64,000 nucleotides of DNA from Prorocentrum cordatum (GCA_963575745.1 CAUYUJ010000114.1:1-64000); one strand, 5' to 3'; positions 19,934 to 54,751 are shown, numbered from the stretch's first letter. Notes: generated by a model not told the origin, from the sequence alone. Translations and numbers: made by a program.

Positions 19934-21290
19934 AGTCCCACCAGCCCTTTGGGCGTGAGTGGTTTAGCGAGCTCTCTCTGTTCTCAACCCCCCTTCTTCC
20001 CCTTCGGGGAGGGGTTTACCCCTCCCCCTACCCCCTCCCCCTGGGCCTGGAGAGGTCCCTCCGCGGGTCGTTGGAGGGGTAATTTTCGACTCCTGGGAGG
20101 GCTAAAAAACAACACCCCTCACGAGGATTCTGGCCCCGACCGGGGGGGGGGAGAAAAAATGCTCCCCTCTTCTTTGGAGCCAAAATCATTAATTTTACTA
20201 CGGTTTTGGCCCCATTTTGGCCTTCTGAGGGGGCAGCGCTAATTAAAGCTCACCTCTTCTTTCAAGCCAAAATCACTGATTTTACGAAGGTTTTGGCCCC
20301 ATTTTGCCCTTCTGAGGGGGCAGCGCTAATTAAAGCTCCCCTCTTCTTTGATCGATTTCCTCCACGATGGCCCCAAGAAGCGCCCAGGAGGCACCAAGAG
20401 GCCCCAAGATGGCCCCAAGAGGCCCCCAGGAGGCCCCCAAGAGGCCTTCCAAGAAGCCCCCAAGATGCCCCCAAGAGGCCCCCAAGAGGCCCCAAGAGGC
20501 TCCCCCGAGGCACCCAAGACGCTCCTGGAAGCCCCTGGGCCGCCAAGAGGCCCCCAAGACGCCCCAAACGGCCTCCAAGAGGCTCCCAAGAGGCCCGAAG
20601 AGGCTCCCCCAAGGCACCCAAGACGCTCCTAGAAGCCCCTGGGGCCGCCAAGAGGCCCCCAAGACGCCCCAAAAGGGGACGAGGCCCCCGAACGACTCAC
20701 ACCAGGACGAGGGGCCCGAACGACTCACACCACGAAGAGCCCGAACGACTCACACCAGAAGGAGGGGCCCGAACGACTCACACCAGGACGAGGCGCCCGA
20801 ACGACTCACACCACGAGGAGCCCGAACGACTCACACCACGACGAGGGCCCCGAACGACTCACACCACGAGGAGCCCGAACGAGTCACACCAGGAGGAGGG
20901 GCCCGAACGACTCACACCAGGACGAGGGGCCCGAACAACTCACACCACGAGAAGCCCGAACGACTCACACCAGGACGAAGAGCCCGAACGACTCACACCA
21001 CGAAGAGCCCGAACGACTCACACCAGGAAGAAGGGCCCGAACGACTCACACCAGGACGAGAAACCCCAAACGACTCAAACCACGAGGAGCGCTTTCTCTC
21101 CCTCCTCCTCCGCCTCGTCCTTCTCCCGCTCCCACCACAAGGAGGATGTACAAGGAGGCGGGAGGAAGGAGGAACAGGGGAGATATGCGGGGGCAGGCGG
21201 AAACACGCCTGGAAAACACGACTGTCGGCATGCTTCGCAAGAGTGGCTGTTTTGAGATGGGCTGGTGGGGATACGCGAAGCGTGAAGAAT
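19934..21290 (+). mobile_element. Non-autonomous subTIR+hairpin element (HINE/DINE-like), copy A, carrying GGCCCCAAGA repeats and a 25/28-bp array
   Basis: CCCACCAGCCC at 19937-19947 is inverted at 21259-21269; hairpin ACGC-GAA-GCGT at 21273-21283; both end blocks recur at 47287 and 52065. Confidence 0.7.
20687..21090 (+). repeat. Minisatellite with 19-bp core GCCCGAACGACTCACACCA and 6/9-bp linkers, 15 units
   Basis: Direct inspection; long-short-long-long-short periodicity. Confidence 0.95.
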
Positions 21291-21711
21291 TGATCCCAAG
21301 CGGGTACTCGAGACGGCCCCAAGACGGCCCCAAAACAATCTCAGACGGCCCCAAGACGGCGCAGTCGAGCTTTCTTGAGAGCCTGGCAGAGACGTGGCGC
21401 CTACGATGCCCCGAGGCTCCCAACAGGCTCCAAGAGGGCCCCAGAGAGAGCCTGATGGATCTCATCCCAAATCTCTTGGGCATCTTAAAATCGCTTTGTG
21501 GGCTGTCTTGGAATGCACCTTGATGGGAGAGCCCAGGGAACAGATCACGGGGAGGAGAAGCCGCCAGGGGGGGCCGACGGCGAATGAAACGAAAACAATG
21601 CAAGTAAGGTGCTCCGAGTTCTAGAAACAGCTGTGCAAGACAACTGGGTAATCCTTCTTTTCCCATCTGTCCTGTCCCGCAGATGCTGCGGCCCGAGACT
21701 AAGCTTCGCAC

Positions 21712-21784
21712 ATGTTAGCCGCCTTTGCCAACGTCACGAGCGGGAGGTTCTTCATGACTGGGACGCTCAAGGGCCGGTATTTCC
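21712..21784 (-). CDS. Internal exon of the nucleotide-sugar transporter (KYRPLSVPVMKNLPLVTLAKAAN+M)
   Basis: TCAG|G acceptor and GT donor; its terminal AT plus the leading G of exon 17864 restores ATG (AANM-YLSFF). Confidence 0.75.
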
Positions 21785-51643: not shown

Positions 51644-53795
51644 GTCGTCGTCGTCGTCGTCGTCGTCGTCGTCGTCGTCGTCGTCGTCGCCGCCGCCTTC
51701 GTCGTCGTCGTCGTCGACGTCGTCGTCGTCGTCGTCGTCGTCGTCGCGGTTGTGGTCGTCGTCGTCGTCGCGGTCGATATCGTCGTCGTCGTCGGGTGCG
51801 TCGTCGTTGTTAGGCTCATCGCTGTGGTCGTCGTCTCCGCTAAATCCCTCTTGCCTCCCACCGCTTTCTCTCCCTCCTCCTCCTCCGCCTCGTCCTTCTC
51901 CCGCTCCCACCACAAGGAGGATGTACAAGGAGGCGGGAGGAAAGAGGAACAGGGGAGATATGCGGGGGCAGGCGGAAACACGCCTGAAAAACACGACTGT
52001 CGGCATGCTTCGCAAGAGTTGCTGTTTTGAGATGGGCTGGTGGGGATACGCGAAGCGTGAAGAATACAAGATGGGCCGACTCGACGCTCAATGGCATGTA
52101 GTAGTCCACAAGGCGGTCGCGAGGTTTGCCTCTGTTGTGCGTTCTGGCTTATCCTAGCTGACATGGCAAATCTGCATAGCTCTGGCGCGCGACCACGGCG
52201 CCCCCGGCACGGCGTCTGCGGCGCCGGGCTGCCTAAGCGCAACGCCAGTAGCGTCAGATTTCCCAAACGCAACGCCCGTGGCGTCAGGTTGCCCAGGCGC
52301 TATAGCCCCTCCATGCGAAGTGCCCGAAGGCCCCGGCGCATTGACGATATGCGCTTTGCGAGTGGCACTTGCACACGCAGGGGCGGCGACAGCTGGCCGC
52401 TCGCGCGCCATCGCGCGACCGTCAACGGCCCCTTCAGCCCCAAACGATCATTGCGTCGAAATTCGCAACGAGCGAAGCCGAGGTGTTCATGCCACCGCGA
52501 AAGCGGGCCTTTTTCGGCTGATAGCCTACACTATGGGATGGGACGGCTTCTGGGCCATAAGCCCCAGGTCAAAACCTTATCGGTCTTGGGCCCTGGCCGC
52601 CTGCGAAGGCGGCCAGGCCCCCGTCGCCGTTTCGAAAACTCGCCCTGCGGTGACTCGCGGGGACACTCCGAGGAGAGAAATCAAAAACAAGGAAAACTGT
52701 TGCATCCGCTCCTCGCGACGCCGACGACGACGGGCGACCCCCGCCGATTCCTATCGATCGGGCACAACTGCTGCGGCGCGCCCGAGCGCGAAGCAGCAGC
52801 AACGGCAAGGGGAGAAGACAAAGAAAGGGAGGCGAGGGGAAGACCCAAACGGCCCCGCAACCTCCCGAATCCAGGGGGTACCGTCAAAAACAAACATGCG
52901 CCATCAGTAAAAACAATACAAAAGCACGCACACCTGGACCGAAACTGCGCTGATCAATGACGCGGGCGCAACGCGCGCTCCAGATTAGAATCGCCGGGTA
53001 CGTCTCTTGGCGATCGATTTCTTCAATGTTAGCAGGGCCATTTCCTCGTCCCGGGTCGCCCTTCGGCGGCCCCAACCCAGCGAAGGACGCCGAAGGCCGA
53101 AGACGGTGCAAAACCTGCATGTGTGTTTTTGCTGGTGCGTTGGAGGTCTGAGTGCCCCTCCTAATCCTCCGTCCCTGAGGAGGCAAGCGTTGAAGAAATC
53201 TTCGCACAAGCGATTCTGAGCATACTATTGAACCCGATTGGGGGGCCATGCATTCCGAGAAAACTCACGAATGAAATGGCTTATACTGGAAAGCAAACAC
53301 GCCAAGCACATGAACAACTGATTTCCGTCGCCCCCCCCCTCACCCCCCCTCCTTCCCCCCCCCTTCCCCTCCCCTCAAGCGCGCCTGTTTATGCTGCGTC
53401 CAACGTTTCACCATCGCCGCCAGCGTTACCCGTCATGGCAAGCCTGTTGTATAATTTCGCCGCCCCCGCGAGTGGGGCGCGATGCTCCCGGGCGTCCGAT
53501 TAGATTTTTGCCGCTGTAACTGGGCGGCCACGACGCCAGGCCATGCCGGAGCAAGCCCGGGAGCAATCCCGATTAATGCGGAGCCGAAGGAGAGAGAGAG
53601 AGCGCCGCGCCCCCCCTGGCTCCGCGGCGGGATATGGCGGCGAGGGCGTCAGCCCTAGGGATGCGGCCCTCGTCTTTCCTGGGCCCCCGCGCCAGAAGCC
53701 ACGATCTCTCGAGTCGACTCGAACCAAAGCGCGCAACAAGCTAGCGAGAGTACGAGGCGGGCAATGCAAAATAGCAAATAGATCGCACACTCAAA

Positions 53796-54751
53796 TATCC
53801 GCCGGCCCCCTTGTGGGGCCACCAGGCTGTAGGCCCGTGATTCGCAGTTTCCTGTACCAGTCGTAGGTTGTAGTTTCCAGTGTTACAGTTCTGCTTCTTG
53901 CTGGTTACTGTAACTAGTTGACTTATTGCTGGTTACTGTAACTAGTTGATTGACCGCGCGAGGGGGGGGAGGCCCAAAGTGGCTTTTTAGCGTCCCCTGG
54001 GCGCGTTGTCTGAATTGCTGGGGGGGCTCGAAATCGACACCCCTCACGCAGATCCGCGGGGTCAGGGTCCAAAAACACAAGGGATTTGCCACATTTCTGA
54101 AATTCGGTGCCACCCCTCACGCAGATCCGCGGGTTCAGGGTCCAAAAACACAGGGATTTGCCACATTTCTGAAATTCGGTGCCACCCCTCACGCAGATCC
54201 GCGGGGTCAGGGTCCAAAAACACAGGGATTTGCCACATTTCTGAAATTCGGTGCCACCCCTCACGCAGATCCGCGGGGTCAGGGTCCAAAAACACAAGGG
54301 GATTTGCCACATTTCTGAAATTCGGTGCCACCCCTCACGCAGATCCGCGGGGTCAGGGTCCAAAAACACAAGGGATTTGCCACATTTCTAAAATTCGGTG
54401 CCACCCCTCACGCAGATCCGCGGGGTCAGGGTCCAAAAACACGGGATGATTTGGGGTCATTTGGGACGCTTCACGCACATCCATCGCAAGGCGTGGTAAC
54501 CCAAACTGCGAGAACTCCCTCGGCCCTTTAATCGCAAGGTGTGGTAACCAAGCCCGTAAACCATACACGTCTTACCAATCGCCAGGTGTGGTAACCCCTC
54601 TTGTGATCAGTTGGTTCTGCTGATTGCGAATCGGCTTCGCATGAAGTTTCGATACTGCTTCACGACAGCGCCAAGGCCTCATGACTTAGCTCTTCCATGG
54701 CCCATTATCCGAGAGAGGGGGCCGGCGGCAGGGGGCGAAGCCCTTACGGAT
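53796..54751 (+). mobile_element. subTIR+hairpin element, copy D, carrying a 72-74-bp tandem array
   Basis: CCGCCGGCCCCCT at 53799-53811 is inverted at 54716-54728; hairpin GGGC-GAA-GCCC at 54733-54743; ends in GAT. Confidence 0.7.
54038..54448. repeat. 72-74-bp tandem repeat, about 5.5 near-identical copies
   Basis: cacccctcacgcagatccgcggg starts at 54038, 54111, 54183, 54255, 54329 and 54402. Confidence 0.97.

Follow-up and report, generated by a model that had tools for sequence, protein, structure and literature searches.

Repeat-carrying elements with covarying subterminal inverted repeats in Prorocentrum cordatum: probable non-autonomous members of the Helitron2/Helentron group

A 64,000-nucleotide stretch of Prorocentrum cordatum DNA (GCA_963575745.1 CAUYUJ010000114.1:1-64000; this whole stretch is hereafter called the window) carries on its plus strand four bounded elements, E1 to E4, and an orphan right end, all built with one end architecture (Table 1). 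We consider it likely that the elements are HINE-like, non-autonomous members of the Helitron2/Helentron group (HLE2) of rolling-circle transposons, that they fall into at least three end-families and that they belong to a dinoflagellate nuclear genome. The anatomy of the ends, their compensated variants, sharp boundaries, dispersed copies and an empty site free of target duplication are observed; an enzyme of the HUH type is inferred from the family.

The 5' terminus of all four elements is a T followed by a GC-rich word of 11-13 nt. The left word begins 1 nt from the 5' T and its exact inverse sits 21-24 nt inside the 3' end. The exact inverted pairs are CCCACCAGCCC / GGGCTGGTGGG (11 nt; family A, in two elements), CCGCCGACCCTG / CAGGGTCGGCGG (12 nt; family B, E2) and CCGCCGGCCCCCT / AGGGGGCCGGCGG (13 nt; family C, E4). 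At the right end of each element, and at the orphan end, a hairpin (4-bp stem, GAA or GTAA loop) comes after the inverse word, and behind it stands a tail of 6-8 nt whose last bases are AT. Scanning the window for 4-bp stems closed by a G..A loop returned these hairpins at 21273, 40929, 42242, 52048 and 54733, all on the plus strand, with the stems ACGC/GCGT, GGCC/GGCC, GGGC/GCCC and TGGC/GCCA. Intact ends on the minus strand were absent from the window. A preliminary description of this DNA had reported the five ends, the inverse words, the stems with their loops and the covariation of words and stems between families, and each of these proved to be present as described. Its right-hand limits of the elements were likewise accurate, while its starts lay 2 nt too early: the alignment of E1 with E3, both of family A, opens at the T of TCCC (19936/47289), closes at the T of AAT (21290/52065) and extends no further, and because this homology and contigs of other copies begin at the T of TCC, we place the true starts 2 nt further in.

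The families differ from one another in a compensated manner. Four variants of the right word (GGG-CT-GG-T-GG and the same frame with -TC-..-C-, -CC-..-C- and -GC-..-C-) each have a matching left partner, three of them within one element and the fourth across L001 and L012, two of the public metagenome contigs introduced below. L001 holds a right end of this fourth variant, GGGGGCGGCGG with the hairpin CGCC-GTA-GGCG and a tail ..CGAT, and L012 holds the left type TCCGCCGCCCC that matches it; a family-A variant with a GTA loop occurs in contig L017. With the extra ends of L001 and L017 added to the five window ends, a 4-bp stem-loop (GAA, GTA or GTAA) lies 2-5 nt past the repeat in every case, and pairing is kept in all five stem variants from window and contigs. 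A second right end in L012 has a hairpin core of 2 bp only. On the strand that reads 5'-T...AT-3', the loop is G..A in all six variants, a constancy that would fit a hairpin formed on that single strand. Hairpins are also predicted at the 5' ends, with energies of -6.5 kcal/mol for E1 and E3, -9.6 for E4 (6-bp stem) and -5.0 for E2. About 60 nt into the family-A left arm there is in addition an internal hairpin, CCCC-TTCG-GGGG, followed by a GGGGTTTACCCC palindrome, and this arrangement is kept in six copies (window 19990-20030 and 47342-47385; contigs L001, L009, L011 and L017).

A chance origin of the end words and of the composite motif in the window is excluded. CCCACCAGCCC occurs four times against 0.06 expected from 100 shuffles, and CCGCCGACCC four times against 0.45 expected; three of the latter are element ends and the fourth, at 45199, lies in surroundings that are not end-like. 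The exact 12-mer of family C is found in the window only at the two ends of E4. A composite right-end expression (GGGNNGRNGG, 0-7 nt, a 4-bp stem, a G..A loop and a tail ending in AT) matched the window five times, always on the plus strand, whereas 200 dinucleotide-preserving shuffles gave a mean of 0.02 and a maximum of 1. The orphan right end comes after a GGCCCCAAGAG-type array; since a matching left end, searched for upstream with up to 2 mismatches, was not found, it is probably a 5'-truncated copy.

Table 1. Elements and end features in the window, counted from its first nucleotide
Feature	Family	Position	Strand	Length	Composition
E1	A	19936..21290	+	1355 bp	interior repeats 87-bp x2.2, 10/11-bp x28, 28/53-bp x13
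E1 5' T and left word	A	19936-19947	+		
E1 predicted 5' hairpin	A	19938-19962	+		
E1 right word	A	21259-21269	+		
E1 mini-hairpin	A	21273-21283	+		ACGC-GAA-GCGT
E1 tail	A	21284-21290	+		GAAGAAT
Orphan right end	B'	40916..40945	+		GGGGTCGGCGG, spacer CG, TGGC-GAA-GCCA, tail TAGAAT
E2	B	41655..42261	+	607 bp	interior with G-runs, 11-bp array, (GTC)13
E2 5' T and left word	B	41655-41667	+		T + CCGCCGACCCTG
E2 right word	B	42226-42237	+		CAGGGTCGGCGG
E2 hairpin	B	42242-42253	+		GGCC-GTAA-GGCC
E2 tail	B	42254-42261	+		TTCGCAAT
E3	A	47289..52065	+	4777 bp	interior with (CTA)408, ~1.4 kb unique DNA, partial right arm 50465-50621, (TAC)137, 28-bp x23, (GTC)55
E3 right word	A	52034-52044	+		
E3 hairpin	A	52048-52058	+		
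E3 tail	A	52059-52065	+		
E4	C	53798..54751	+	954 bp	interior repeats 28-bp x2, 72-bp x5.6
E4 5' T and left word	C	53798-53811	+		T + CCGCCGGCCCCCT
E4 5' hairpin	C	53804-53820	+		GGCCCC/GGGGCC
E4 right word	C	54716-54728	+		
E4 hairpin	C	54733-54743	+		GGGC-GAA-GCCC
E4 tail	C	54744-54751	+		TTACGGAT

Scanning public metagenome contigs with the 25-nt family-A right-end word yielded 20 contigs, which represent 18 distinct flanks because L008 and L010 come from one locus, to which L011 is related; the same word had no match in viral contigs or in prokaryote genome contigs. A 7-nt tail follows the word in all 20 (CAAGAAT in nine of them, AT-final in 17), and the contigs diverge beyond it. We profiled identity over 19 right ends, namely those of 17 contigs together with E1 and E3, having dropped L010, L017 and L020 as duplicate locus or for too short a flank. 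Mean pairwise identity is 0.39 at positions -40 to -21, 0.51 at -20 to -1, 1.00 within the search word, as it must be, 0.78 in the 7-nt tail that the search word did not include, and 0.28 over the following 20 nt. When the contigs were compared with the window by BLAST, homology stopped at 21286-21294 in 20 of 20. E3 and E1 themselves share 91% identity over their left 207 bp and 97% over their right 204 bp. At the other end, the exact left end TCCCACCAGCCC lies 1.0-1.7 kb upstream in three of the four contigs with at least 1.2 kb of upstream DNA (L001, L009 and L017), and L014 has a family-C left end whose flank is unlike that of the window right up to the T. The sharp boundaries and the pairing of right ends with their own inverse that the preliminary description had proposed are thus borne out, the pairing in four of five window ends and in three of these four contigs.

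One contig also bears on the host. In L020 no more than about 50 nt separate a family-A right end (14-45) from the end of an intronless PP2C-UBX gene (93-1691, minus strand), and all six organism-named matches of this gene among the 120 matches listed are from dinoflagellates (labelled Prorocentrum, Symbiodinium, Effrenium, Durusdinium and Azadinium, plus one match whose label is truncated), 50-57% identical where identities are given. By sequence similarity these matches support a dinoflagellate host for that copy, which may have inserted in or beside the untranslated region of the transcript.

The insertion site is seen most clearly in L009. The filled site reads gagctttaa[TCCC...CAACAAT]tagcg, and empty paralogues of it, gagctttaat|tagcg, occur in four places: in the interior of the L009 element itself (reverse), at the start of the L009 contig and in both 87-bp units of E1. 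These uninterrupted paralogues imply that the insertion entered the internal repeat of another family member without duplicating its target. The site is ..AAT|T.., and apart from one ambiguous T there is no target-site duplication, in keeping with the earlier expectation of an empty paralogous site that lacks one; the insert may be parsed as TCC...AA between A and T or as CCC...AAT between T and T. Nor was a target-site duplication found at any of seven complete copies. A tandem duplicate in L015 is ambiguous as an empty site. All nine left ends (four in the window and those of L001, L009, L012, L014 and L017) start with T, the preceding base being A in seven, and AT closes 25 of 28 right ends. 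In 16 of the 20 contigs a T follows the tail immediately, and in 14 the second base beyond the tail is T. Elements of different families abut head-to-tail in L001 and L012, with one T common to both.

Contigs of four sequencing runs, drawn from those that match part of 52000-55000, were placed on window positions 40800-47650 and their depth was summed per bin, a measure that is not copy number. No RNA run was among those listed for 52000-55000; X19 might be RNA. Run X1 matched unique DNA of the window without differences, for example with a 690-nt contig that spans the left junction of E3; its summed contig depth was 0-6.8 in unique bins against 743-16,960 in element bins. Run X2 gave almost no cover on unique DNA and up to 32,177 on the elements, so a further labelled organism also has these families. 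Element bins as a whole lay 100- to 10,000-fold above unique bins in this summed depth. The left boundaries were again sharp: among the 32 contig pieces listed from the four runs, five start at 41652-41655 and three at 47289-47292, with loose contig ends at 41653 and 47289. The 25-nt end recurs, unchanged, in the organism of the window, in runs of two other labelled organisms and in environmental contigs of varied GC content.

Between the end modules lie mostly repeats. Tandem Repeats Finder detected arrays inside all four window elements, and microsatellites are present too, as the preliminary description had said; its further statement that the interiors are different does not hold throughout, as a 10-11-bp GGCCCCAAGAG-type array is common to three elements, the orphan end and several metagenome copies. 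Four very long trinucleotide arrays occur in the window, (CAT)222, (ATC)383, (CTA)408 and (TAC)137, at 24712-25375, 28091-29239, 47753-48983 and 50621-51031, and two of them, (CTA)408 and (TAC)137, are inside E3. The partial arm at 50465-50621 of E3 is a second family-A right arm, 84% identical, which halts exactly where the inverted word is expected to start and gives way to (TAC)137; it looks like a terminator-less arm with read-on to the next right end, or the outcome of an unequal exchange.

The layout of the elements agrees closely with published HLE2 transposons. Helitron2 elements have 8-15-nt asymmetric terminal inverted repeats, of which the left lies 0-2 nt from the end and folds into a 5' hairpin and the right is found immediately before a hairpin, at 20-30 nt from the 3' end, together with a 5' T and compensatory changes (PMC3627910). 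HLE2 elements are described as inserting at T-T and as having repeats of 12-16 nt, the right one followed by a 3' stem-loop (PMC11417382); HINE/DINE-1 elements have repeats in subterminal position, a palindrome at the 3' end, tandem repeats or microsatellites in the centre and a TT or T-rich target that is left unmodified (PMC4067079). The window elements have the asymmetric inverted repeats, the 3' stem-loop following the right repeat, the 5' T and insertion without duplication; they also have central tandem repeats and microsatellites between end modules and are multicopy, as HINE/DINE-1-type carriers are. They may be Helentrons, which are defined by an AP-endonuclease domain fused to the Rep-helicase, or Helitron2 elements; no copy encoding Rep and helicase with these ends was found in window or contigs.

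Nearest in layout, on which the comparison is based, are the Chlamydomonas elements Helitron-1N1_CRe and CRe-1/2/3 (Bao & Jurka 2013, PMC3627910), with the same 5' T, repeat placement and compensatory changes, a 5' hairpin using the left repeat, which in the window elements is a predicted one, a surplus of right ends attributable to 5' truncation and, in 1N1_CRe, duplication-free insertion beside T; unlike them, the window elements have a minimal hairpin (4-bp, GNA or GTAA), interiors made mostly of tandem repeats and a host of another lineage. The HINE/DINE-1 elements of mites, mosquitoes and Drosophila (Thomas et al. 2014, PMC4067079) and the oyster Cg_HINE (PMC7492417) are likewise built from a pair of short end modules; they have subterminal inverted repeats, a palindrome at the 3' end, arrays of tandem repeats or microsatellites in the centre and a T-rich or TT target that stays unmodified, and their copies far outnumber any autonomous partner and act as carriers that disperse satellite-like arrays. 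The right repeat of mite HINE is 38-60 bp from the end (PMC4067079), compared with 21-24 nt here. Within dinoflagellates, a Rep-helicase element of Symbiodinium microadriaticum falls on the HLE2 side of the Helitron tree and is called structurally Helitron2-like by its authors (Heringer & Kuhn 2022, PMC8788227); it is autonomous, whereas the window elements are non-coding. Paramecium germline chromosome-end Helitrons (bioRxiv 10.1101/2025.11.06.686955) share an alveolate host and derivatives without open reading frames that disperse minisatellites, but are placed by the authors in a clade outside HLE1 and HLE2 and have right ends that finish in CCAA.

In our literature search, non-autonomous HLE2 elements turned up in no account of dinoflagellates, for which generic 'helitron' counts from repeat masking exist (PMC9087856). 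The earlier remark that no description in dinoflagellates was known holds within this search for the non-autonomous kind; the host group itself already has a Helitron2-like Rep-helicase in print, that of S. microadriaticum (PMC8788227). Among HLE2 elements, satellite carriers are already established for Drosophila, mites and oysters (PMC4067079, PMC7492417) and are also known in green algae, and the window elements are of a known kind in a little-studied host. On the whole, the initial proposal of Helentron-like satellite carriers is supported, the published end layout being matched and copy number being high, with the HUH enzyme as its conjectural part. Two further assignments were dropped. 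A canonical Helitron (HLE1) is rejected, as CTRR occurs in none of 28 right ends and inverted repeats are present, even though 5'-TC is present and an A|T site is possible; an introner reading fails on termini that are not splice-site-like.

Of the rival explanations, the best survivor invokes the same kind of single-strand, HUH, hairpin-guided mechanism with an enzyme from outside the Helitron superfamily, either Y1 IS200/IS605-like or an undescribed nuclease, the HLE2 likeness being convergent. It would accord with the lack of a partner protein among window and contig open reading frames and with a target whose 5' half (..RAT) mimics the element's own 3' end. Such mimicry is typical of IS608- and IS91-type elements. 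We nevertheless regard this explanation as unlikely: the window elements display the structural features of HLE2, the 5' hairpin as a predicted one, we know of no eukaryotic Y1-HUH transposon family, and a Rep-helicase related to HLE2 exists in a dinoflagellate (PMC8788227). Less probable still, and close to refuted, is that the elements are miniature inverted-repeat transposable elements moved by a DDE cut-and-paste transposase which reads the 11-13-nt inverted words near both ends as imperfectly placed terminal repeats; neither the L009 empty site nor the seven complete copies have a target-site duplication, the ends are asymmetric with one word terminal and the other 21-24 nt inside, the hairpin and tail are strand-specific, and orphan right ends occur. 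Least probable of all are immobile blocks of satellite DNA that have structured borders and multiply by segmental duplication or recombination, a reading that the tandem-repeat interiors and the common flanks of L008, L010 and L011 might favor but that is close to refuted by the precise filled/empty pair of L009, besides which there are 18 distinct flanks among 20 contigs and five more in the window, an abrupt fall of identity to background past the tail, and elements nested in and abutting one another.

Several observations weigh against assigning the elements to HLE2 transposition. Domains of Rep, helicase or any other transposase are absent from the 249 open reading frames of at least 100 aa in the window and from 67 in the contigs. 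In the energy model the hairpins of single ends, including the predicted 5' hairpins, are no better than shuffles, 16 to 133 of 200 shuffles folding equally well or better; the nearest-neighbour model misses the special stability of GNA mini-hairpins. One of the five window right ends has no left end, and neither has L013, one of the four contigs with long upstream DNA. The identity of the 25-nt word among contigs is a consequence of the search itself. The empty site concerns a single insertion (flank-to-flank BLAST, seven complete copies), and its ambiguous T leaves the cut as A|T, which would be Helitron1-like, or T|T, which would be HLE2-like. T follows only one of the five right ends in the window. 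Finally, among the contig joints listed in the runs none skips E2, and those listed lie between tandem arrays.

Under the HLE2 assignment, a Rep-helicase encoded elsewhere would nick the plus strand just before or just after the 5' T and would then unwind the nicked strand 5' to 3'. On the displaced single strand the subterminal right word could pair with the terminal left word, opening the 5' hairpin, and the GNA-capped mini-hairpin could serve as a stop mark, with the second cut falling 6-8 nt downstream of it, after ..RAT. The freed strand, probably a circle, would integrate at an ..AT|T.. site without duplicating the target. Any DNA between the two short end modules would co-travel, tandem repeats and microsatellites included, and might later expand in place, so that satellite seeds would be spread through the genome. 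We infer the enzyme, the single-strand intermediate and the order of steps from what is proposed for the family. If the insert is parsed as T|T, ..RAT| would precede both cuts of the element and the target as well, which would suit a single nuclease specificity. A bolder version, which we offer tentatively and hold to be doubtful, is that one end module (word, GNA mini-hairpin and RAT) and one Rep-helicase lineage swept several dinoflagellate taxa and became the main seeder of genome-bloating microsatellites and satellites, with a single nuclease specificity (..RAT|) for both cuts and integration.

What is known of mobile DNA in the huge, repeat-rich genomes of dinoflagellates comes mostly from automatic repeat masking. 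A hand-verified, very high-copy family with precise ends can supply a search model for annotating such genomes, and this end model can be used for explaining the origin of dispersed satellite and microsatellite arrays and for finding the driving Rep-helicase. The compensated end variants, moreover, amount to a set of natural mutants with which the recognition of termini by HLE2 transposases could be tested. To our knowledge such recognition has so far only been hypothesised, model families included.

The window contains no convincing gene. No recognisable coding sequence was found in the E3 interior at 49.0-50.5 kb, an Rfam search of the window gave no match, and the dinoflagellate spliced-leader word had no window match at up to 3 mismatches. 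A Pfam match to AA_permease_2 at 3555-5027 was rejected as a poly-Ile/Ser low-complexity artefact. Further repeats lie outside the elements. At 22458-22759 and 24013-24294 a related 10-bp repeat forms arrays in reverse orientation, and no ends can be recognised on them. An 83-86-bp satellite occupies 25976-27587 and, in reverse, 15400-15800, and recurs at 79% identity in L002 (942-1019), about 20 nt downstream of a family-A right end. At 10700-13600 there is a tandem array with a unit of roughly 80-90 bp and a recurring CCGAAGG core on the minus strand, which is also present in L006 (1698-1990) and L019 (1844-2066) at 70-76% identity. On the minus strand at 56388-56900, a fragment of a Ty1/copia-type reverse transcriptase matches Pfam RVT_2 with an E value of 1e-7, just above the curated cut-off.

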